A stretch of DNA of 62,938 nucleotides, counting the filler, from Aduncisulcus paluster (lineage: Eukaryota), in assembly GCA_024181965.1 (NCBI GenBank). It is 6 parts of 6 records of this genome, joined end to end, with 100 filler letters (N's around TTAATTAATTAA, not from the genome) between each part and the next. Parts side by side here need not be neighbours in the genome. Positions count along the whole stretch, not along the records: positions 9,687 to 37,475 come from BQXS01011084.1; 5 more parts are not named here. The stretch is one strand, 5' to 3'. A program made the translations under genes and the position numbers. This document shows, in pieces, positions 3,639-58,512 of this stretch. Within the stretch, counting starts at the first letter, position 1. Each line of letters starts with the position of its first letter. Below the pieces are notes generated by a model. That model made no database searches. It was not told the DNA's origin and worked only from the letters and a program-made list of their open reading frames with translations.

Positions 3639-6600
3639 TTAAATAATCTTACCAATTTCATTGCACCCCTTTTTAAGGAGATGCTTGGGAGTTGTGTAAA
3701 TTAGCATAAACACCATGGAATTCAGAAATCCAAAGTTATCTCCGCCCATAATAATGACCACGTAAAGGTATAACAGTGAAAACGCTATGAGAGAGAACAA
3801 TAGAGCGATTGAAAATGAAGAGAAGGAGGTGGATCGATTTGTTATGGCGATTTCTTGACCAACGAGAAGCTCGGAGAATCTATCGGACATCATTTCCATC
3901 GATTCGTACTGCAAATATAATTGATGCAGTTGGAAAGTGTCGTCAGAGTTACTGAAAATGTCAATTTGTCCATCGGTTCCGAACAAATCCAACGAAAACT
4001 CACCAACATATTCAGTAATGAAATCGGAAATCAACAAATCAAATGGAGAATTTCTAATGCTGTTTTGAAGCTTTTTAGCGACTTGGATTTTCTTCATCCA
4101 TTGAGAGCTGAATAATTGCATCGAGTTCTTGAACAAAAGCGATTTGAGTGTTTTGTTCGAACCCAGGGATAAAGAACGCCAATCTATGAGTATATCTCTC
4201 ATTTCACTGTCGAGCAGAGGCATCAGAAGATTTGATTCTGGAATGTCAGCATGGGAAATGCCAACCATATTTGTGCCAACACTCATTGAAATATAACGTT
4301 CAGTTTGTACAATGAACCTAAACGATTGGACGTCATGAAGCAGATTGGAGGCTACAATGTAAGTGTATANNNNNNNNNNNNNNNNNNNNATCGAGTTCTT
4401 GAACAAAAGCGATTTGAGTGTTTTGTTCGAACCCAGGGATAAAGAACGCCAATCTATGAGTATATCTCTCATTTCACTGTCGAGCAGAGGCATCAGAAGA
4501 TTTGATTCTGGAATGTCAGCATGGGAAATGCCAACCATATTTGTGCCAACACTCATTGAAATATAACGTTCAGTTTGTACAATGAACCTAAACGATTGGA
4601 CGTCATGAAGCAGATTGGAGGCTACAATGTAAGTGTATAGGATAATGGAAACAATAAGGAATGAAATAGCTATGAAAAACACGAACGAACATCGCTTGAC
4701 TTTATCGATGAATGGAATGGCAGATGGAGATATGTGAGATATCGGGAACTGGTCCTCTTTTTCATCGATGCTACTGTATACATCATACAATTCATGCACT
4801 AAACTGTTAGCGTAATGATCAACACGATCAATAAAAGCCGATCCTTGCACCAAATCGTCCTTATCTTCACCGTGCGACTGATGCTGTTCCTGCTGATATC
4901 TCTTCTTAAATCTGAATCTATTGCTTGTCGGAACAAGAGCCTTGTCATCTCCTTCAGCGAAAGTTACTTGGTATGTTTTGCTGTTTCTTCTCATGACTTT
5001 TGGTCCAAGGGAAGGAAGATGGATGGCGAACAACTCTTTCCAAAAATCAATGCAAGAACTCACAGCCAACTTAACCTGTGAAATCGATACGCTAAAGGAA
5101 AAGATCAAAAAGATTGAGAGACAAAAGAAGAAAGCCACGATAATCCAAAGAATAAACTTAATGTATGAAGATTCTTGGATGGAAAAATACTCGCTGAAAA
5201 TGAAATTCTTAAGAACAGTCATTGAATCTCGAATATTCGTTGAAATATACTCGTTATATTCTATCAATGTCTCAGCAACAGCTCCAGCATAGTTCTGAAT
5301 GGTATTGGAAGCTCCGAATAGCTCCCCAAATTCATCACCAACGTGGGCCCACCAACTTACACAATATTCGTATATCCACTCATCGGAATCTTCAAGGTAA
5401 TAGTATGTTGAAAAATATGAGATAAACTTATTTGAGGAACAATCGGCAACATCGCTATAGTTTTCACTTTCACAGATAGTTGTTAATGTCAGATAAACCG
5501 AATATCCAACACAGAATAAATTCTCATCAATGGTTTCACCAATTAAGTAAGCACTTTCACCAGAAAGGCCAACGAAAGGGATTTCTTTCATGTTATCTGC
5601 ATGCTCAATTGCATCAAGGTAATTAGCAAAGATATCGCCAACAACCGAAGCATTGGTTTCTGCAAATAGTTTCTTTATCAGGTAAGAGGAAGTATATTCT
5701 GAGGAGAGGTCAATTATTCGAGAATCAGCCTCCAAATCTCGAATAACCGAATATAGAACATCAATGGTTCCAGATAAATATGTAGTCATCAAATTAGTTA
5801 GTTTCATGGAAGATTCTTGGAAAATGAGAATTGCAGTGATGTTTTCCATTAAAGTTTCTTCCTTGAGGAACATAAAAACCTGAAGAGTACACATTATACT
5901 CACAAATCCAAAAATAGTCACAGCAGCAAATACATGTTTGGTGGAATTGAATTTGCTTGGGAACTGGAAGAATATCCCGTCAGCATTGAAACTCCGACGA
6001 ACGATTTCAGTTTCATCAGATGTGCCGTGTAACAATGAAAATGGACTAGAAAGTTTCTGTCGATTGCTTAAAGTCGAAGCCGAATCACTATCAACATTTC
6101 CTTTTTCTCCATTTTGTTGATCTTTTTCTTTGCCATCTTCTTGACTCAAGAGCATTGAGTTACCTTTAACACGTTTTCTCAGCATTCTGTAATACATTCG
6201 AGCTAATCGAAGTGAATTCTGAGTCAAATAAGTCACTCTGTTCATGAGAATAAATAGTAAAAACATCACAACAAAGACGATAAAGAAAGGAAGAAGAGAG
6301 AGAGCAAAGTAATGCCTTCTCCAATTATTTTCATATTGTAAATGCTCAGTGATTCGGTGCTGTTCATGTGAAATAATTGTAAACATGTTGATAGAGGAAT
6401 GGGAAAACAATCTAGAATATATTGTGGATGAATTAAAAGCCGTCGAAATGCTGGTAAGTTGATCAAGATCGGGATCAGACAAGGAATCAGAGGATGAATC
6501 GAAATAATCGGCAAGAATACTGTATAAATAATCATTCTCGATTTCATCTGAGCATGACAATGGCCAGAATACTTCCTCAAATATCTGGGAGATCGATTCC

Positions 6601-9586: not shown

Positions 9587-9686
9587 NNNNNNNNNNNNNN
9601 NNNNNNNNNNNNNNNNNNNNNNNNNNNNNNTTAATTAATTAANNNNNNNNNNNNNNNNNNNNNNNNNNNNNNNNNNNNNNNNNNNN
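9587..9686. other. Artificial contig linker
   Basis: N44-TTAATTAATTAA-N44, with stops in all six frames. Confidence 0.99.
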
Positions 9687-10552: not shown

Positions 10553-12649
10553 ATGTTATTCTGCCCTTCATTATCCGTGCTATCTCTGTTATTATTTTTT
10601 TGTTTCTGTTTTTTCCCTCGATCAACCTGTGTATTTGTTGCTGGTAATGATGGGAATGGTGGAGGACAAGCTGGAGTATTAATTACATTTACAGTTAATG
10701 GAATATATGATATTTTCTTCAATGGACTTGAGTATGTCATTCATAGTTTGAATTTTTGAAAATGCTTCTGATGAGTCAATTACACTTATGAGTATGATCT
10801 CTAAATATTTTTTCTCTATTTAGGCCTTGGTTTGATTCCTTTATGGGAACTTTCGGTATGTTGTTTTTATTTTTAATTTGAAATTTCATTTTTTGTTAAA
10901 GTCTCGATTTATAATTTTATTTATCTCTAATAATCAATGACACGATTAGATATACCTGACTTTTCAACTACTGTCGATTTTGGAGTTGGAAAAGCCTCTG
11001 TTTCTCTGCTAAATTTCCAGGTTGTCTCCTACAATTTTTTCCCCGGTGATAAAGTCATTGTTTCCACTATTCCATCAGAGAATGCAGTTTTTGTTGAAAT
11101 GTCTGGCGCAGGCGTCGCCCTTTCTCTTGATTATGATGTTAAGCTTCTTACGTATCCCTATACAGATATGAATGGCTCTGCATCGCTTTCTATTGGGGAT
11201 GCTGGTATAATCACAACAATTTCCGTCACATCTGAACTTGATTCTTCGGATTTATCTTGTAATAATGGATTTCAAGGATGTGGATATCTTCCTCTCATCA
11301 CAACACCCGAGTTGGAGGTTCATATGAACAATATCGCCTTAAAATTCATTGGTGACGCCAGTCCTGTCCTTCAAATGATTGCTGATTTAGTTAGTTCTGC
11401 CATTGTTCCTTTTTTGAGTTCTGCGATATCGGATGAAATAATGAAATTCATTAATAATAATCATATGGATCCAGATATGGGTCTGTATTCTCCAAAGTAT
11501 CTCTCCATGGATAACAGGTCCAAGTACTATTTTGGGTATGCTCAGAGCTTCATTTTTGGGGATAGTTTTATTGTTTTACCAATGATTGGAATTTCTACCT
11601 TTGGCAATACTCCCGGTGAAGATGATGCCGCTGTGTATCCTGATTTTAACCCCTCTAATCTTCCATATGCTGCATTTTCGAGTAGTATTCAGTTTACAAT
11701 TGCATTTGATGCCATTAAAGCAGTATTTTATAATACAATTTACAATTCAAACGAATATTTTTCTGATTGGAAAGGGACGTTTGATACCATTGCATGTGTC
11801 AGTACCGAAGATGGCTGTGTTGATAGCGATAGGAATTGGAATGGGGATCAGTCAAGTGCTTATGTCATCCAGCATAACCTTGGTAGGGATATTGACCAGC
11901 CTCCGAGTAACTTCTCGCCTTTGTATACAACTCGGTATTGGAGCGACCTTCTTCCTGATTTGTACTCTCTTTGTTCCAATTGTTATATTGATTTTACCTA
12001 TACTTTCAATACCGTCGATTATGTTCCAACCGTTCCCGATATTTCCATGCGCGTTGATGGTCTTGATATTGTATATCATGACTTCTACATCATTGTCGAT
12101 ATTGTTCAGGTTGATGACGGGAGTAGTGTTGCCTCTGTTGGAATTTCAGTGGATATTATTGCAGATGCAATCGTGTGGAGTGATCATGCTTACATCAACT
12201 TTCTTCAATCTGTGATGGATTTCGAGAATCTCTCGATTGAATCTTGTGCCATTCCAACTCTTGAATATGGCAATACCGATAAAGAATGTATTATGGGATC
12301 TGCTGAGTGGTTGCCATTTGTCAAACTAATGTCCACACTCTTTTTGGATGATATGTTCCAGAATACCTTCAAGCAGAGTTGGAGAGGTTGGTCTTGGTTT
12401 AATCGTATGCCACTTGCGTATTGGTATGTCTGTACAACTAAGGAGGAAGAGGTCTATTATGCTCCGAAAGGTTCCTCATTACACCGATCTTTATTCGGAT
12501 CGGAGTATGATGAAGATGTTATTAATACCCACGATGAGTATATTATTGTTTCAGCTGAATTTGATGAGTATATTTGTTGTGGATGGGATTTTGATGGTAG
12601 TTCTCGAAATCCGGATGGAACTTGTTATTGTGTCTCACAGGTGTCTTGA
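10553..12649 (+). CDS. BPI/LBP-like (TULIP) lipid-binding secreted protein, 3 exons
   Basis: Exons 10553-10731, 10824-10855, 10950-12649. GTATGT..AG introns of 92 and 94 nt give a continuous frame: signal peptide, then GVLITFTVNGIYDIFFNGLEPWFDSFMGTFDIPDFSTTVDFGVGKASVSL, a BPI N-terminal pattern. Confidence 0.75.
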
Positions 12650-13140
12650 TGTTTGTTTATTTTTAGTTTCTTTGCTACCATCCTTCTTAATATTTTGTTT
12701 TTGTGTTTTTATTTTTTTCTTCTAATTGATTATTTATTGTTACTATTCGAATAATGAAATTTGTTTTTCTCGAATTCTGTACAAAAATGTTATTATTACC
12801 TTAAATCAACGATATTCTTATTTACAATGTTATTATTTTTTTATTGCTTTCTGGTCTTATTTTTCCATTCGACTTGCAACCAACGATGTGAATTTCCTTA
12901 ATTGTTTGATATTCCATTTTTTCTCCATTGAAACCCCGAATTCGGTCCTGATCGTATTTTATGAATTATATGTTCCACTTTCCACAAGACCTATTTTTAT
13001 TATTATTATTTACAATGATAAAACTGAACAGTTGAAAATAAAGATGAAGTTATCAATTTCAAAATAACAAGACTGTCATATGAAAGTAAAATACATAATA
13101 TCTTCCCTTTTTCAAAAAAAAAAAAAAAAAAAAATTCTTG

Positions 13141-13479
13141 CTACTTCTCAATAGGTGGAATAATCTCAATCTGAGTGTTATCTTCATCACTAATAGATAA
13201 TAAGCTCTTAGAAGAATGTTCACATGATTCATAAGGTATTATTCCCTTATATATGGGATCAATAGGCTGCTCTATTCTTTCTGGAGAGAAGGGCGAAATT
13301 TTGCTGTGTCTTTGACTTAAGCAAATGCTATCAGATATTTCTCGCCGTTGAGACACATCTCTCGGAATTGATTGATGTTTTGTCACTTGTTTTGCATGTA
13401 ACTCCGATGTGGAAGTGTGTTCATGTTCATATTTAAAAGAAGCAAAAAAGACAATGTCATCGGAATCCATTTCATCCAT
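13141..13479 (-). CDS. Small hypothetical protein (112 aa)
   Basis: ATG-initiated ORF filling the gap, divergent from the DUF62 gene. No recognisable motif. Confidence 0.4.
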   Translation of the reverse strand: MDEMDSDDIVFFASFKYEHEHTSTSELHAKQVTKHQSIPRDVSQRREISDSICLSQRHSKISPFSPERIEQPIDPIYKGIIPYESCEHSSKSLLSISDEDNTQIEIIPPIEK

Positions 13480-13744
13480 GATCTCGCGATTTAAGGTTTA
13501 CAGAGATAACACGAGCTGCAGAATGTCATCGTAAGTCAAAAACAAAAAGTTCGTACACGAAACCATTCGGTCAGGGTCGGTATTCTCCTCAAAAAATGGA
13601 TAAAAAGACTTAGATCCTGGTAATCTCGCTATTTCATTGCATTGTGATTCTTTTCGATTCTAATAAATGGCATTGGGACTTAATGACTACAGTTGTCAAA
13701 CTTTGACAACATGCGCAATTCTAGCCTCTTATTTCGTTGTTAAG

Positions 13745-14956
13745 ATGCCAATTACAATCTCATTTTGTTCGGATTTCGGTCTTGAAGACTATTATGTTGG
13801 CCAAGTTAAGCATGTTATTCGTCGAATTAGCCCTTCGACTTCTGTCATAGATCTCACCCATCAAGTCCCTCGTCAAAACGTTATCCTTGGGTCTTTGTTT
13901 GTTGCCAATACACTCCCATATGTGGGACCAAATACCATCCATTTGTCTATTATTGATCCATCTGTCGGAACCGAAAGGAAAGGAATTCTTGCAACCTTGC
14001 CAAACCCCTTTAAAGGAGTTATTATTGCTCCTGACAATGGATTTCTTCAGTATGTATGTCACTTTGCCAAGATAGATATCAATGACGTTCAAATTTATTT
14101 CATTCGTTCCACTCCAACTCCATTCGTTATCAGGCCTTTATTAGCTGAAGTGGGATGTACATTTGATGGTAGAGATCTTTTTGGTCCGGCAGCTGGGGAA
14201 TTGGCTCGCTTTATGATTGAAATTGGGGAGGAAAAACTTTCTGCTGCTGAAGATCGAATCTACCCAGATCCGATTGTAGATGAGCTTAGCGAAATGAAAA
14301 AGGAGGAAAAATTGGAAAATGAATCTGATATATTATCGCCTGATCCCATTGTTGTGACTCCATCCGGATCAGAAATGAAAAAAGTTGAGTCGAAATCTCT
14401 TGGGGAGATAACACCTGGTAAGATACACAAAAGGGGGGCTTTTTATCTCTTGCATGAAAATGACAAAGCCTCTATTTCCCTTGGATCCCTTGTATTGGAT
14501 CGAGCTGAAGAATCGGATTTAACCAAACCAGATATCGATTTGACGAGTAAGCAACTTTATTACATTTCTCGTACAATTGATAGTGATGTCCATTATGTCC
14601 ATGCATTTGTGTTACATGTTGACCATTATGGGAATTGTATTATTTCTGCTCCATATTCATGTTTTAAGAAGGCTGCCGAAGCTGATACAACATGTACCGT
14701 TGAAATTGGTGGAGAACTTCTTTCTGGAGATGAATATCAGGGAGCGAAGTTCTCAACAGCTGCAACCATTACTAAAGGTTATGCTTGTGTTGAAGTTGGG
14801 GAGTGGTGTATTACTGGAAATAGTTATGGACTTATTGAACTTGCAATTAACCAAGGGAATGCTCTTGAGGAATTGTCAGAGGAATATGAACCTGAAATTG
14901 ACGCTTCTTCGCTATTTATGACTTCAGTATTCATCACTTGGAATGAGGGTGAATAA
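13745..14956 (+). CDS. SAM hydroxide adenosyltransferase / SAM-dependent halogenase family protein (DUF62)
   Basis: Motifs SDFGLEDYYVG, IDLTHQVP, IIDPSVGTER, IAPDNG, TFDGRDLFGPAA, HVDHYGN and NSYGLIELAINQGNA. Intronless. The start at MPITISF matches the family N-terminus; an upstream ATG exists at 13667. Confidence 0.93.
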   Translation: MPITISFCSDFGLEDYYVGQVKHVIRRISPSTSVIDLTHQVPRQNVILGSLFVANTLPYVGPNTIHLSIIDPSVGTERKGILATLPNPFKGVIIAPDNGFLQYVCHFAKIDINDVQIYFIRSTPTPFVIRPLLAEVGCTFDGRDLFGPAAGELARFMIEIGEEKLSAAEDRIYPDPIVDELSEMKKEEKLENESDILSPDPIVVTPSGSEMKKVESKSLGEITPGKIHKRGAFYLLHENDKASISLGSLVLDRAEESDLTKPDIDLTSKQLYYISRTIDSDVHYVHAFVLHVDHYGNCIISAPYSCFKKAAEADTTCTVEIGGELLSGDEYQGAKFSTAATITKGYACVEVGEWCITGNSYGLIELAINQGNALEELSEEYEPEIDASSLFMTSVFITWNEGE

Positions 14957-15692
14957 TCGATTGAAGCATATTATTTTGATGGTGATAATGATAACAATAT
15001 ATGATTATCTTCAGAACCAATGATATTAATGTTTGCTTCTCGAAGTTCAAGACTTGAACCTGGAGTAAAAATTATAATTTATACTGATAGTTAGTGGGAT
15101 ATTCTGTTGTCATATTTTAAAACGGCGCGGTAGACCTTTTTGTGTAATATCAAGTGCAGTAATTGAATTGGTGACATCTCGGAGAATGAAAATTTTCCAT
15201 TAGATGATGAGATGATGAAATAGAAATAGTTCAAATTTGATTTAATCAATTTGATAAGGCTTTTGCCACGTCACCCACTGGCAGTCCGATATTTGATGAA
15301 AAAGAGATGCGTTTTCATTGGAAAATCCCATGCATTACATTTGAAGCAAAAAATTGATAATATAATTATTATATTATAATTTATTATTCATAATTCGGGG
15401 AAACAAGTGAGAGCCAAATCAGAAAAAGCACGGCTCTACCATATATACGTCTCGAAAGTCGTAACATGGTGGTGAAAAGTAACGGAGTAGAAAGTTAAAA
15501 AGCGAAATCGTTTCAAAAACAATGATATACATTATTTAAAGGCGATTTGGTGGTTTGTTAAACAATATTATATTATAATGATAATAATTTAACATGCGAA
15601 AAGTTCAATGATTCTGATATATATATAGATAGATAGATATCAGATATATAAAAACAATATTTCATTGTAAAATCAAAATAAAAGGAGGAAAT

Positions 15693-17536
15693 TCAAAGAC
15701 AGATCGAATCATCGTCATTAACATCAATTTGGGTCCAATCAATCAAATTATTCTCAGCAAATTGGTACAACATTGCAAAGAAATCTTCTCCATACCACAC
15801 ATCTTCGTCAACCAGTTTAAAAATTCCCCTTGAACCTCCATAGCGAAATCTGCTATCTCCCTTGGATAAGAGGGTCCACTGGGGACACACGACAGTTGAT
15901 AGCACAACGGTCAGCATAAGTTCGAGAGTGGATGCTGATGGATATGGTTCTGAAGAAGCTGATATAGAGACCCCATAGGCGTCCATGGGGAAATACATTC
16001 CATTGACGATATTATGGATGTTATAATTGGAGGTGGGCTGGACAACAATGGTCAGAACCACATCGGTAGATACTATATCCTCTGAATCTTCCATCCATTG
16101 CTGAGTCTGCTGGTTGAACACAGAGAACTGGATTGACATGGGGGCATAAAGGGCAATTGCACCAGGCATCATGTCAGGATTTGGATCATCTGTCATGGTG
16201 TATGCCATTTTGATTGGAGAATCGCTGGAAAGGGATGAAACGGATGAAGGGAGCGAAGAGAATAGAGCAGAGAGAGTGGATAGAGAGAAAGGGAAAGAGG
16301 AAAGACTTGAAGGAAGCATCGACGCATCAACTGTTCCATCAAATGAACCACGNNNNNNNNNNNNNNNNNNNNCTGGATTGACATGGGGGCATAAAGGGCA
16401 ATTGCACCAGGCATCATGTCAGGATTTGGATCATCTGTCATGGTGTATGCCATTTTGATTGGAGAATCGCTGGAAAGGGATGAAACGGATGAAGGGAGCG
16501 AAGAGAATAGAGCAGAGAGAGTGGATAGAGAGAAAGGGAAAGAGGAAAGACTTGAAGGAAGCATCGACGCATCAACTGTTCCATCAAATGAACCACGGGG
16601 ACGATATGTATGGATGAATGAAGCTATAATGTGGGGTTTACAAATCACTTGGAAATGATTATTAGTCACAATAAAGGGAGGGTCAGAAAGATTGGGAGGA
16701 ACGTCATAATAGTCAGAATCTGTCCCATAATACGTGGCTGTGTTGGGACTTGAGGAATAGTTATCAGTGGTTACATTGTCGAAGGGCATTCTGTAATCAA
16801 TGGCGGTCTCATCATCGATCACTTTACATGTCACAGGAAGGAAAAAGGAGCTCACCAATTCATTTAAAACTTGAGCAAATGTGGAGTTGATAACGTCTTG
16901 AATCCCAGTTTGTATTTCAGGGCTCAGAACAGAGAGGAGTTCAGAAATAATATCAGACCCGGTGGCAGAGATATTGAAATCGCCGAGATTTATATTGATC
17001 TCATCTACATTAAACGATTGGCAATAATTTACGCTAATTATTCTCATAGATCCCTGAAGAGACACATTTGAACTATCGATCACGATCGAGGCCGATCCAT
17101 ACGTATATGGCCAAGTCAAAAGGCGGAAACTAAAGTCAAAACTGATTCGAAAAGTTGCATTATATATACCAATCGTATATCCAGACTCTGCAGAGGTGAA
17201 AAAGGTTAAAGAAGAGGCCGAAAACGTATCAACCGAAATATCATTGAAATCTAACTGCATTTTGCCTAAAGGAGTAGTGACATCAAATTCAAAAGGATCA
17301 ATTTGAATCGACAAAAGCAAATTCTCAATAATTTCAAGCGCGATAGGAGCAGCATATTCCATTCCGGAAAGAGGAGTAGTATAATAAAGAAAAACTTGTA
17401 AATTGTCGTTAGGGGCGGAAATTGAGTCATTTAAATCAAGCGGAAAGAAGGGAGAGGGAATAGACGAAACAGAAACAATATGGGGAGAAAAAAACAGTAC
17501 AAAAAAAACTGAGAGTGAAAACACAAAGCGATGCAT
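15693..17536 (-). CDS. BPI/LBP-like (TULIP) secreted protein, ~532 aa after collapsing an artefactual duplication
   Basis: Signal peptide MHRFVFSLSVFFVLFF, then TPLSGMEYAAPIALEIIENLLLSIQIDPFEFDV and IDDETAIDYRM. Removing 245 nt (duplicate plus gap) fuses ORFs 16193..17713 and 15693..16319 into a single 1599-nt frame. Confidence 0.78.
16128..16597. other. Scaffolding artefact: 225-bp exact duplication flanking a 20-N gap
   Basis: 16128-16352 is identical to 16373-16597. Confidence 0.9.
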
Positions 17537-17755: not shown

Positions 17756-17827
17756 TGCCGAGACGGAGAATTGAACTCCGATTTGCCGGACCACAACCGG
17801 CTGTAATAACCATTATACTATCTCAGC
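17756..17827 (-). tRNA. tRNA-His (GTG)
   Basis: GCTGAGA/TCTCGGC acceptor stem, GCCGG-TTGTGGT-CCGGC anticodon arm, CGGAG-TTCAATT-CTCCG T arm, discriminator A and a downstream T5 Pol III terminator. No encoded G-1 or CCA. Confidence 0.95.
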
Positions 17828-18033: not shown

Positions 18034-20155
18034 ATGCAGTTTGAAGAAACTCTCGAAAATGGAGTTCAATATACAGAACAAGGAGCTGGAAGTGGTGCTA
18101 AGGCTTATGGTGTCTTTATTGCACGTGATCACGCTTTACATAGTGCTGGGCATGCTATTGCTCGAACAAGCCGTACTGCTACTATAGCAGCCTCGAGGAA
18201 ACGTCTTGTTACCCTAGCCCAGGCTCTAAAAATGCAGGAAACCCATGTTGATCAAAGTCAGAGATTATATATGCTTTGTATTGATAAAGGATGTGTAAAA
18301 GGCCATCCCAAAAATTTAGTTTCAACCATATGTCTTTATATTACTGCTCGTAGAAATAATCTTCCTCTTCTATTGCTTGATTTCATGGAGGCATCTAAAG
18401 CCGGGTTATATCGGTTAAGTAAGATATATATAAAAATTATTAAGACTCTCGATCTTCATTTATCAATTGTGGATCCTACAATATATTTGGCTCGTTTTTG
18501 TTCCGCCCTCTTGCTTCCACAAAGCAAAGCTCGAGAAATTGTCAAGACTTCGACAGTTTTGATAAAACGAATGAAAATGGACTGGATTACTATTGGTAGA
18601 AATCCATGTGGTATTTGTGGCGCTGCTCTTTTCCTTGCCTGTCGTCTTCATGGGGAGTTTAAGACAAAAGAAGAGATTAGCGATATTGTTCACATCTCTA
18701 AAGAAACTCTTGAACTCAGACTTAAAGAGATACAAGCATCTGGGTTTGGTTCTGCCCATGTCAAAGATATTCAAAATGATGTTCGCTCAATATTAGAAAT
18801 TGAATCCGAAGCATTACCTCCGGTGGAGAAAAAGAGGATTAGAAAGGAAGGAAAGGAAAGGCAACATAGGAAGAAATGGGAATTAATTCAAGTGGAAGAA
18901 GGAGAGGAAGAAGAAGAGAGAGAGGAATCGGAAGAGGTAGAAGAAGAGGATATGGAAGAGGCGGAAGAAGAGGCGGAAGAAGAAGAAATCGACAAAGAAA
19001 TTGAAGAAGAACAAGAAAAGGAGCTTCAAGAAGAAGATCTTGAAGAGCAGGCTCAAAGTGTTAGAAGAGATTAGCGATATTGTTCACATCTCTAAAGAAA
19101 CTCTTGAACTCAGACTTAAAGAGATACAAGCATCTGGGTTTGGTTCTGCCCATGTCAAAGATATTCAAAATGATGTTCGCTCAATATTAGAAATTGAATC
19201 CGAAGCATTACCTCCGGTGGAGAAAAAGAGGATTAGAAAGGAAGGAAAGGAAAGGCAACATAGGAAGAAATGGGAATTAATTCAAGTGGAAGAAGGAGAG
19301 GAAGAAGAAGAGAGAGAGGAATCGGAAGAGGTAGAAGAAGAGGATATGGAAGAGGCGGAAGAAGAGGCGGAAGAAGAAGAAATCGACAAAGAAATTGAAG
19401 AAGAACAAGAAAAGGAGCTTCAAGAAGAAGATCTTGAAGAGCAGGCTCAAAGTGTTCAGGATAATCGTTCCATGAAAACTATGGCAACAATATCTAAATT
19501 ATTCGAATCGATGGATAAAGTCAAGAAAAGTCAAGATAGAATTGTGTATATGATGGAAAATGGTGAGATTCGTTCTTCCGAAGTTGGAAAACGTCGTCAT
19601 ATGAATGAGGAAGAGGAAGAGGAAGAGGGAATTGATTTATTGAATTCTCAGCCTTCTCGGACATTTCTTTCCTCAAGTTCAGATCCAAAGAGCTCAACTA
19701 ATAATCATTCTGTCATTGTTCTGCAAGATTCCAAAATCCCAAAACTTGAAGATCTTACCCCTCTCCTGGAATCATTCATTGTGTCTTGTCCGGAGCAGTT
19801 AGAGACGAGAAGAACACTTTGGGAAGAGAGATACAGTGCTGTATATGCCCGGATGCAAGCCAAACGAAGGATTAAACAACGAGATGAGGATGAGAAAGAG
19901 AAAGAGAAAGAGAAAGAGAGAAGCAAGAAGAAGAGAGCTCTGGAAAAGGAAGGAGAAAGTTTGCAGTCCAGTCGAATTGACTATGGAGCCCTTCAATCTC
20001 TCTTGGGAGATGCTCCCATCACTTCAGAGCCCCTCGTATCTGCTCAAATTACTCATCAGGGAGAAATTGAAGCCGTGGGAGAGCCAGAGGAAGAAATGGA
20101 AGAGATGGAACACGAATTTGAATTCGAATTGGATGGACAATCCTCTGTTTTTTAA
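18034..20155 (+). CDS. BRF1: TFIIIB subunit BRF1 (~575 aa after removing a 394-bp duplication)
   Basis: TFIIB cyclin repeats (CLYITARR, IVDPTIYLARF, RMKMDWITIGRNPCGICGAALFLACRLH) and a C-terminal BRF homology block (ESFIVS...RRTLWEERYS). Collapsing the duplication gives one 1728-nt frame. Confidence 0.9.
18669..19456. repeat. Perfect 394-bp tandem duplication inside BRF1
   Basis: 18669-19062 is identical to 19063-19456, with no N gap. It shifts the frame. Confidence 0.9.
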
Positions 20156-22979: not shown

Positions 22980-23530
22980 ATGTCAGAAATTAGAGATATT
23001 CTTGAAAAAGATGAGGATAAATTTCAAATAACTAAGTTTTGTCCTGATTGGTATGTTTTTGGATTGATCGATTCTCTATGACCTTGAATGCTATTGAATT
23101 GATTTTTAGAATTTATTATTTGATATACGATAAATTTTTATTTTATTTTAGCCAAAAATTGCTTGACCCAAGGATTTCTCGAGTAGTTTATCCTGATGGT
23201 TCTTCAGCACCTCAATTTATCCTTAAATGTCATTTTTGTCCATACGATGAGCCAGTAGAAACTCAAAAAGAGGTTTTTGTTCGTGATTTGACGCCAAATA
23301 TGGTTGATCGTGCCGCCAAACGTACTTTTGCTTCTTTGAGGCTAGATCCTACTTTTCCTCGAATTGTTGGGGATTGTCCGAACTGCCACCACCACGTTGC
23401 AATTCCTTATCAGTTACCCACATCAAAATTCGATCAGAAAATGGAAAGAGTGTTGTTTTGTGCTAAATGTGGGACAGAATATAAGGAAAAGGCTGATATT
23501 CCAGATGGACAAAAAGATGAAGAAGAATAA
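22980..23530 (+). CDS. RPB9: RNA polymerase II subunit RPB9, 2 exons
   Basis: Intron 23051-23151 (GTATGT..TAG). Splicing restores the first Zn ribbon FCPDC...CHFC; the second is DPTFPR..CPNC...CAKC. It lacks the RSADE acidic loop of RPC11/RPA12. Confidence 0.85.
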
Positions 23531-33375: not shown

Positions 33376-33658
33376 TGGGAACAGGAGAAAAACAGGAAAA
33401 AAAAAAAAAACAATCATGTATCGAGAGAGAGATATTTTCAAAAATAAAAATATATCATTTAATATCTAATCCAAACATTTTTTTTGACTCATTTTGCCAC
33501 GATAAACCTTAATACAAAAGTACGTAGAGTCCGCGAAATTCTGCAAAATCAAATCACTTCGAATGTAGTCGCATTCTTGGGTGCTATTATCTTTTTCAAA
33601 TTTCCCCCAAATTGTTTTTATCAAAATCACTTATTTCATTCAACATTTCTTATTTTTT

Positions 33659-35035
33659 ATGACCAATTTACTCGCTGTTGTCATTAGTGTGCTAGAAGTT
33701 GAAGCACAAATCATTCTCATTGTTCTTGTCGGTATCCTTTCTTCATCTCTTAAATTGATTGGCCGAAAGGGTATATATGCACTTAATCGATTTTCAACGT
33801 ATATTTCTGCTCCCGCTGTTTTTCTTGTTAGACTCTCAAAAGTTGATTATTATTCATTAGATTATAAGATACTTGGTGCTTTTCTATGTGTCAGAATCAT
33901 TTATTGGCTTTTTTTCACGTTTATTTTGGTAATATCAGATAGATTTAGTCTCGTCAAACTCTTTAGTTATGCGGCCTCAGCAACTTGGGGAAATGATATT
34001 GTTATTGGAATACCCCTTGTTGTATCAGTTTTGGGTGAAGATGCAGAATATATTGCTTTAGCATCATCCCTCGTCGACCGACTCCTTACACTGCCATTTG
34101 CATGGGGAATAATGGAAATATTTCGATATAAACAAGAAAAAAAACGAAAAGAGTGTGGATATGGAGATTATGCTAAAGAAATTACCCTTGAAGAGTCTCA
34201 ATCAGAGGCCCGAATTAATAGTCCAGAAAAAACATTAAAAGATGGGAAACAATCAATTGAAATGCAACCAACAGTGACAAAACGGATCCATTTCACAGAT
34301 ATTGAAGTCCATCATAGACCCATTGATAAGGAAGAGGAAGTATTCATGGATCTTCCACCTTCTCCAGGGATCATCAAAAATAATAATCTTATCCGTCCAC
34401 AATCTCCGCAAGATGAAATGAAAGTCAGAACACTCCTTGATTTATACATGGGAGAAGAGGAGGAGACTGATATTGTTTCGAAAGAAATTGAAGAAATTCC
34501 TATCTGTGAAAGTGTCCCAATCAAAATCATCGCAAAAATTCTATTTAAGAGAGTTGCATTACATCCTTTAATTATTGCAGCAGTTCTTGCTGTTATCATA
34601 TCCCTATGTCATGCAGAATTGCCTTCGGTTATCATTGCCCCAACAGCGGAAGCATTTTCAAACTGTATCACTGGAGTATCTCTATTTATTGTTGGTGCCA
34701 CTCTTCCAGAGCGGTTAAAAAGCTTAAGTGACCTCAAAGACAAAGAATTACTATTTAATGTTGGAATAAGATTATTATTTAAACACATTGTATCATTTCT
34801 ATTAACCATTGGCTTCGCATATCTTTTCGGGTTCAGCAATACTGTTTGTGTTGGCATTTGTCTCATTTCAGCGCTACCAATGGCTAGAACCGTATTTGGT
34901 ATTGCAACAGAATTTAATGTCTATGTGAAAGAGTTGTCTTTGGTTCTTCTTTTGGGGTTACTCGTCTTTATTCCTTTACTTCCTGCCCAAGCTGTTTTAG
35001 TGGCACTTTTGTGGCCGACAGAAACACCCATATAA
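33659..35035 (+). CDS. Auxin-efflux-carrier (AEC/Mem_trans; PIN/GPR155-like) transporter
   Basis: 5+5 TM segments around a ~140-aa hydrophilic loop. Motifs ALNRFSTYISAPA, GNDIVIGIPL, HPLIIAAVL, VSLFIVG and SALPMARTVFGIATEFNV. Confidence 0.85.
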   Translation: MTNLLAVVISVLEVEAQIILIVLVGILSSSLKLIGRKGIYALNRFSTYISAPAVFLVRLSKVDYYSLDYKILGAFLCVRIIYWLFFTFILVISDRFSLVKLFSYAASATWGNDIVIGIPLVVSVLGEDAEYIALASSLVDRLLTLPFAWGIMEIFRYKQEKKRKECGYGDYAKEITLEESQSEARINSPEKTLKDGKQSIEMQPTVTKRIHFTDIEVHHRPIDKEEEVFMDLPPSPGIIKNNNLIRPQSPQDEMKVRTLLDLYMGEEEETDIVSKEIEEIPICESVPIKIIAKILFKRVALHPLIIAAVLAVIISLCHAELPSVIIAPTAEAFSNCITGVSLFIVGATLPERLKSLSDLKDKELLFNVGIRLLFKHIVSFLLTIGFAYLFGFSNTVCVGICLISALPMARTVFGIATEFNVYVKELSLVLLLGLLVFIPLLPAQAVLVALLWPTETPI

Positions 35036-37475: not shown

Positions 37476-37575
37476 NNNNNNNNNNNNNNNNNNNNNNNNN
37501 NNNNNNNNNNNNNNNNNNNTTAATTAATTAANNNNNNNNNNNNNNNNNNNNNNNNNNNNNNNNNNNNNNNNNNNN
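37476..37575. other. Artificial contig linker
   Basis: N44-TTAATTAATTAA-N44. Confidence 0.99.
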
Positions 37576-41567: not shown

Positions 41568-41667
41568 NNNNNNNNNNNNNNNNNNNNNNNNNNNNNNNNN
41601 NNNNNNNNNNNTTAATTAATTAANNNNNNNNNNNNNNNNNNNNNNNNNNNNNNNNNNNNNNNNNNNN
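41568..41667. other. Artificial contig linker
   Basis: N44-TTAATTAATTAA-N44. Confidence 0.99.
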
Positions 41668-50475: not shown

Positions 50476-50575
50476 NNNNNNNNNNNNNNNNNNNNNNNNN
50501 NNNNNNNNNNNNNNNNNNNTTAATTAATTAANNNNNNNNNNNNNNNNNNNNNNNNNNNNNNNNNNNNNNNNNNNN
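50476..50575. other. Artificial contig linker
   Basis: N44-TTAATTAATTAA-N44. Confidence 0.99.
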
Positions 50576-58412: not shown

Positions 58413-58512
58413 NNNNNNNNNNNNNNNNNNNNNNNNNNNNNNNNNNNNNNNNNNNNTTAATTAATTAANNNNNNNNNNNNNNNNNNNNNNNNNNNNNNNN
58501 NNNNNNNNNNNN
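58413..58512. other. Artificial contig linker
   Basis: N44-TTAATTAATTAA-N44. Confidence 0.99.

Follow-up and report, generated by a model that had tools for sequence, protein, structure and literature searches.

Enzymes of the DUF62 family bind S-adenosylmethionine (SAM) where two subunits meet; water then attacks its C5′ and methionine departs, yielding adenosine and methionine. The hydrolases carry the triad D68-R75-H127, according to the available text of PMC4859513, and this His-Arg-Asp triad is strictly conserved in hydrolases and missing from halogenases, as stated in the accessible part of PMC10491745; the halide-site residues are given as Y70/G131 in SalL and T80/S158 in FlA (PMC4859513, same portion). 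Two archaeal enzymes are (R)-selective, and knockouts in two archaea raised the share of (R,S)-SAM (10.1101/2025.08.29.672840, available text). Yeast, among other eukaryotes, removes (R,S)-SAM by homocysteine methyltransferases, and the accessible text of PMC12120602, which reports this, also argues that hydrolysing (R,S)-SAM is perhaps not what the family does physiologically, doubting clean-up for StDUF62. A DUF62 family member of Entamoeba histolytica is listed as a prokaryote-to-eukaryote transfer in supplement file 10 (tree TN033) of PMC4053834, in a row that bears the mark 'EH only', which refers to the 13 genomes of that study; on the strength of that listing, DUF62 transfer into an anaerobic protist is already known.

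Here we describe a DUF62 gene of the protist Aduncisulcus paluster. The window, that is, the whole stretch of 62,938 nucleotides analysed, consists of six contigs with artificial spacers between them (N runs around a 12-base all-frame stop), so that genes on either side of a join are not neighbours. Positions 9687-37475, which hold the gene, are one contig (G000:C11084). The features of the gene are as follows.

13745..14956, + strand: gene of the DUF62/SAM hydrolase-halogenase superfamily, 403 aa, single exon, single copy
13757..14209, + strand: SAM_HAT_N domain, residues 5-155 (Pfam E 1.7e-34; 119.1 bits against a cut-off of 26.3)
13955..13957, + strand: Asp71, which corresponds to triad Asp68 of PH0463 and is retained; Asp in 254/254 homologues
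13976..13978, + strand: Arg78, which corresponds to triad Arg75 of PH0463 and is retained; Arg in 254/254 homologues
14165..14167, + strand: Asp141, where PH0463 has the triad residue His127 (TFDGRD for TFHGRD)
14264..14542, + strand: inter-domain insert of ~100 extra residues, E/S/K/D-rich, predicted to be disordered, residues 174-266
14609..14896, + strand: SAM_HAT_C domain, residues 289-384 (Pfam E 3.6e-13; 50.1 bits against a cut-off of 25.5)

An earlier note on this DNA had the position and family of the gene right: a 403-residue frame runs from the ATG at 13745 to the stop at 14956 without an internal stop, PF01887 is followed by PF20257, both above their Pfam cut-offs, and in a profile search of the genome's contigs this ORF is the sole PF01887 match. 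An upstream ATG in the same frame, at 13667, would lengthen the N terminus by 26 residues and is not favoured because homologues begin at the 13745 position. That the gene is intronless, as had also been stated, agrees with the open frame, with a contig of run X2 that spans 13146-15608 in one piece without a joint, and with an AT content that has no intron-like peak (at most 70% in any 70-nt stretch, against 74% and 81% in two neighbouring introns). On its sequence, the product is classed as a DUF62 superfamily member that is neither a canonical (R)-SAM hydrolase nor a halogenase.

A structure model has the alpha/beta/alpha N-domain and beta-sheet C-domain of the family, both at high confidence, with a pLDDT mostly of 80-96 in SAM_HAT_C, which carries the D-x-Y-G-N motif with conserved D293 and N297. 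The modelled N-domain superposes on PH0463 (1wu8) with Z 20.4 and an rmsd of 2.0 over 152 residues, and the top 21 VIA rows of a structure search all belong to the DUF62 family (Z 17-21), the next row falling to Z 7.1. Whole-chain rmsd against family structures is 13-16 because the model sets the domains differently across the insert. Residues 174-266 have a pLDDT <50 and hold a short internal repeat at the protein level; GRD and DxxGN lie 148 residues apart, where the median among 242 sequences is 48 and the next longest spacing 66. The insert lies in the linker, where it may leave both domains undisturbed. An intron was rejected as the source of the insert, given the open frame, the X2 contig without a joint and the lack of an AT-rich stretch; the sole donor-like site found, at 14050, sits in the conserved N-domain. 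Elsewhere in the family, P0132 (522 aa) has an N-terminal half, which from its motifs we take to be metallophosphoesterase-like, fused to DUF62.

The residues that characterize the hydrolases are largely in place. Strongly conserved columns are kept at 34 of 43 positions, D10, H39, D71, R78 and the PDNG, GRD and DxYGN motifs are all present, and D-P-x-V-G-x-x-R is retained. Measured against the strict (R)-SAM hydrolase triad, the protein has the equivalents of Asp68 and Arg75 and lacks that of His127, and because Asp141 occupies this place we do not file it as a canonical (R)-SAM hydrolase. The triad-His column reads H in 213, D in 29, Q in 7, E in 4 and A in 1 of 254 homologues, where both the query and the search pattern by which sequences were collected inflate the Asp share of 29/254; in an unfiltered match list it is 10/149. 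The same His-to-Asp exchange is seen in intact-looking bacterial and archaeal-clade homologues, and the Asp state, which changes 9 times on a 50-row tree, therefore arose several times. Seven of the His-to-Asp proteins that we located (L038, L046, L054, L085, L057, L058 and L061) come from Acidimicrobiia-type Actinomycetota and Nitrospirota. A literature search over openly readable papers and text-searchable journal supplements returned no assay of a His-to-Asp variant.

We put the probability at about 0.5 that this old, prokaryote-derived nuclear DUF62 gene encodes a two-domain hydrolase of (R,S)-SAM that replaces the homocysteine-methyltransferase route. By analogy with its relatives, the enzyme would probably be a homotrimer with active sites between subunits, in which water would attack C5′ of SAM by SN2 to release adenosine and L-methionine. 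Its preferred substrate would most likely be the damaged (R,S)-epimer, Asp141 would keep the attacking water in place as His does elsewhere, and the ~100-residue insert would be tolerated. Such a hydrolase could take over the removal of (R,S)-SAM for which yeast uses homocysteine methyltransferases, and a methionine-dependent host without that route would gain by recovering methionine and adenosine.

The metabolic setting is compatible with this proposal. The host is an anaerobic protist, as the earlier note had supposed, with PFO genes in pieces, one of them bearing a GT..AG intron, and six [FeFe]-hydrogenase matches on four contigs; on one host-like contig (G000:C11954; L007, L112) PFO and [FeFe]-hydrogenase genes stand head to head. 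It is likely a fornicate: a tree of 47 rows unites RUVBL1, which the window carries on a different contig, with Carpediemonas (SH-aLRT 97), a grouping flagged as two long branches meeting. Host-like genes for MAT, an SAHH-like and an MTA/SAH nucleosidase-like protein, MTAP and PNP are present. SAM turnover with adenosine and methionine salvage, as first put forward, is the likeliest role as judged from sequence. The SAHH-like (adenosylhomocysteinase-like) ORF, L099 on G000:C9769, is 820 aa long, has host-like codons and carries a very long insert after the first ~126 model positions. Homocysteine methyltransferase and MetE matches occur only on contigs of 465-1131 bases: the former as two fragments, on 742- and 465-base contigs, that best match MetH-type models, the 742-base one contaminant-like and the 465-base one (L003) of host or contaminant origin, and MetE on a contaminant-like contig. 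The host thus seems to be without a clear homocysteine methyltransferase, in a genome search that can miss divergent or intron-split genes. Counted against the hydrolase reading are the missing triad His, scores far under the NCBIfam cut-offs (NF058624, 106.8 against 350 bits; NF053629, 96.6 against 470; both equivalog models are narrow), the slowness of SAM epimerisation at low temperature and the doubted physiological role.

Some of these points also bear on a second possibility, to which we give well under even odds, namely that the gene has the same origin and a changed job: an Asp-Arg-Asp site that uses another nucleophile or adenosyl substrate, or a weak SAM/adenosine binder whose acidic insert is regulatory or localising. 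The Asp at the His127 position would fit such a change, as would a terminal branch of 2.11 against a median of 0.62 (about three times), an insert of ~100 residues that is unique among the 242 sequences, and the published doubts about what DUF62 does physiologically (PMC12120602, available text). Yet D71, R78, D10, H39, PDNG, GRD and DxYGN are all kept, many prokaryotes have Q, E or D at the His position, a hint that some freedom exists there, and long inserts occur in other host proteins too, such as the SAHH-like ORF.

Whichever reaction is catalysed, the relatives of the protein point to prokaryotes. A search of 1.84 billion representatives gave 6572 proteins with E <=0.001, the best non-self match has E 1.4e-26, and listed identities are 30-45% over the matched stretches. 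The source was sought for 30 of the 149 non-self top matches: an organism is named for 7 clusters, all of them prokaryotic, and no eukaryote source turned up among the 30. The best 80 of 582 genome loci fall in Actinomycetota, Bathyarchaeota, Chloroflexota, Cyanobacteriota and others at 29-40% identity, a metagenome scan gave 9 loci at 31-36%, none close, and none of the 25 and 13 non-self matches of word-based protein searches is labelled eukaryotic. Bacterial clusters alone are among the Atlas matches listed, which is no proof of absence elsewhere.

A phylogeny with prokaryotic and any eukaryotic homologues had been proposed; the trees built here hold prokaryotic homologues and the DUF62 protein, with no eukaryotic homologue among their rows, and the three of them give three unsupported places and a long terminal branch. 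FastTree (175 rows) sets the protein with P0027 (support 0.896), a quick tree (80 rows) sets it beside Actinomycetota (support 77), and in a careful tree of 50 rows hand-picked from 255 no supported set holds it. A union with nine Asp-type Acidimicrobiia-like rows is absent from the careful tree and is not rejected (AU p 0.265), and no single donor clade was singled out by the three trees. With relatives at no more than 45% local identity and a donor unplaced in the trees, the gene looks prokaryote-derived and its transfer old. Lateral transfer from a prokaryote, the central claim of the earlier note, is supported in that all nameable relatives are prokaryotic and the gene is integrated in the host genome.

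It is unlikely that the gene is instead shared with other eukaryotes (Entamoeba, other metamonads) by ancient inheritance or eukaryote-to-eukaryote transfer rather than by prokaryotic uptake in this lineage. E. histolytica does have a family member (PMC4053834, table row), the trees give our protein no settled place, and names cover at most 30 of the 149 top matches and no lower ones. Against this, no match stands out above the prokaryotic scores, the insert is found in 0 of 242 scored sequences, no nameable match bears a eukaryote label, and the Entamoeba row of the same supplement is confined to that organism among its 13 genomes. Supplements on diplomonads, Kipferlia, Mastigamoeba and new metamonads are likewise without family terms (PMC7762791, PMC8136499, PMC11316075, PMC5874029, PMC13198582 and PMC4217692, most files covered), a weak argument, as they may not list such genes. 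The literature search, again over openly readable papers and text-searchable journal supplements, found no report of a DUF62 gene in a fornicate.

Very unlikely, too, is a SAM-dependent halogenase, chlorinase or fluorinase, that would give the protist the halide chemistry entertained in the earlier note. The fold is that of SalL, ClA1/2 and FlA, and the triad His is also missing from halogenases; yet the protist protein keeps the Asp-Arg pair of a triad that halogenases lack (PMC10491745, accessible part), and where Y70/G131 or T80/S158 would be expected (PMC4859513, available text) it retains D-P-x-V-G-x-x-R. SalL and ClA2 read YVYPETG and T-W-Y-G at these sites, with Tyr at the D71 place and no Arg, whereas our protein has Asp71 at the Tyr70 place and keeps Arg78; Gly131 of SalL does not discriminate because Gly is common to all hydrolases. 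At the FlA site, Gly142 stands at the place of Ser158, an equivalence taken from the motif. The (R)-SAM hydrolase models score E 1e-30 and 2e-27, against E 0.016 for the fluorinase model (TIGR04507, 14.5 bits against a cut-off of 400), and PH0463/TM0894-type solved structures match better than SalL/FlA. With a hydrolase-type D71 and R78 signature and the SalL and FlA residues missing, halide chemistry is not borne out.

The integration of the gene in the protist genome was judged in part from its neighbourhood, which comprises the following features, given with the joins of the window.

10564-12649, + strand: upstream BPI/LBP-like gene, with introns 10732-10823 and 10856-10949; the first intron seen starts at 10732
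13141..13479, − strand: 112-aa ORF in head-to-head orientation to the DUF62 gene, the two ATGs separated by 265 bases
15693..17527, − strand: downstream LBP/BPI/CETP-like gene (Pfam PF01273, E 7e-4, below cut-off)
9587-9686, 37476-37575, 41568-41667, 50476-50575 and 58413-58512: artificial joins, N runs with the stop spacer

The contig holds an annexin gene, two BPI/LBP-like genes, the DUF62 gene, a tRNA-His, BRF1, a CFAP206-like gene and a WD40 gene. The BRF1 and CFAP206 genes named in the earlier note do lie on it, the first with a Pfam match to the TFIIB repeat and the second with a weak FAP206 match (E 5.8e-5, below cut-off). The statement that no gap lies between the gene and the spliced BPI-like gene stands with a qualification: zero N separate the two genes, and the 112-aa opposite-strand ORF intervenes. 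An Atlas search with this ORF gave no usable match; it possibly shares a promoter with the DUF62 gene. The two GT..AG introns of the upstream BPI-like gene are spliced in run X2 only, and its product, without a Pfam hit of its own, is 23% identical to that of the downstream gene over 158 residues (E 8e-5). These two divergent genes, on opposite strands, converge on the DUF62 gene, and X2 contigs over the downstream gene have a much greater depth, which cannot rank expression.

Further along the contig, tRNA-His(GTG) (17756-17827, −) lies directly upstream of the gene for the Pol III factor BRF1, an RNA polymerase small subunit-like gene with a TFIIS zinc ribbon (about 22980-23530, +) and an apparent GT..AG intron from about 23051 stands head to head with the CFAP206-like gene, and a Mem_trans (PF03547) family transporter is encoded at 33569-35035 (+). 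The assembly has false duplications in the window, of 250 and 225 bases across 20-N gaps at 4370-4389 and 16353-16372, and of 394 bases within BRF1 at 18669-19062. Run contigs skip those at 16353-16372 and 18669-19062, and the apparent BRF1 frameshift is therefore an artefact.

One contig of DNA run X1 (record 3) covers 13261-17405, and the DUF62 gene is therefore physically joined to the downstream BPI-like gene. Its depth of 1239 is like that of neighbouring host contigs (1306, 1312, 1406 and 1379), and no loose contig ends were found inside 13261-15500 among those listed. The X2 contig over the gene reaches into both flanks and is therefore no sign of expression. Both runs come from a single sample; the assembly may have been made from X1, and X2 as RNA is a guess. 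The coverage break or chimeric join that the earlier note had named as a possible flaw was thus looked for and did not appear over the bridged stretch; on the upstream link, an A run near 13116-13135 is bridged by no single run contig.

Composition had also been offered as an argument against contamination. AT-richness alone is none, because the assembly holds AT-rich bacterial contigs; what holds is codon use. In a two-table score of host against contaminant, the DUF62 gene reaches +0.218, a value like those of 15 host genes, which span +0.094 to +0.336, and opposite in sign to those of 7 bacterial-contig segments (-0.097 to -0.174), a test that is partly circular because the bacterial set was picked by the analyst. 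Host codon use is found in all three parts of the gene. A simple host codon table gave 0.171, against a best of 0.134 and a median of -0.33 for 88 prokaryotic DUF62 genes; as proof of integration it was rejected, since an AT-rich bacterial MetH fragment scored 0.168. The AT-rich bacterial contigs observed (L002, L101, L113 and L115) carry MetH, MTA/SAH nucleosidase, MetE and O-acetylhomoserine sulfhydrylase, the last intronless and adjoining an ORF that we take to be mnmA-like, and their presence means that any claim of lateral transfer in this genome needs a linkage check.

Contamination or chimerism, in which a bacterial gene of co-cultured microbes was joined to protist sequence, draws on those bacterial contigs, on the unbridged A run and on X1 as possible source data, and is highly improbable given the downstream bridge at flank-like depth, the lack of loose ends among those listed, host codons throughout, distant prokaryotic relatives (local identity <=45%), a host-style insert and a neighbourhood without bacterial genes. 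The DUF62 gene, as had been held, is no contaminant, and we regard its integration in the eukaryote's genome as practically certain.

As a case of lateral transfer this is ordinary for an anaerobic protist, and its novelty is limited because transfer of DUF62 into E. histolytica is already listed (PMC4053834, supplement). A eukaryote that has long kept a DUF62 gene, seemingly without the methyltransferase route, offers a natural test of the clean-up idea, and the Asp141 form shows that the triad His, though described as 'strictly conserved', can be replaced in natural proteins. Two wider ideas are doubtful: that Asp-Arg-Asp DUF62 proteins are a subtype with changed chemistry of which the protist holds the eukaryotic representative, or that anaerobic protists of two supergroups independently swapped the methyltransferase route for a borrowed hydrolase.

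Of the known systems, the E. histolytica protein (XP_651697.1/C4M0V6), a predicted SAM hydroxide adenosyltransferase, shares family, anaerobic protist host and a listed transfer with ours; it belongs to another supergroup than Aduncisulcus, and the likeness is drawn from a table row of PMC4053834, not from sequence or tree. SalL, ClA1, ClA2 and FlA have the fold in common with the protist protein (Z 19-20) and a family chemistry, SN2 at C5′ of SAM, like that proposed here, but they are without the Asp-Arg pair, their halide-site residues are missing from the protist protein, and their sequence match is much weaker (E 1e-10 to 9e-4). Among uncharacterised DUF62 proteins, those of the TFDGRD type from Acidimicrobiia, Nitrospirota, Planctomycetota and others have the same Asp at the His position, and TFDGRDLFGPAA and a Gly at position 61 recur in several of them as in the protist protein; they are without its inter-domain insert, and in the careful tree it lies outside the Actinomycetota clade (AU p 0.265 for the union). 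The two-domain fold is that of PH0463 (1wu8, 2wr8), Thermotoga 2zbu, MJ1651 (2f4n), StDUF62, SaciSAMH and HvSAMH, and the PH0463-type hydrolases, with which the protist protein shares the triad Asp and Arg, PDNG, GRD and DxxGN, are its best sequence matches among solved structures (E 4e-24), differing from it in the triad His that is Asp here, in the ~100-residue linker insert and in the eukaryotic host.
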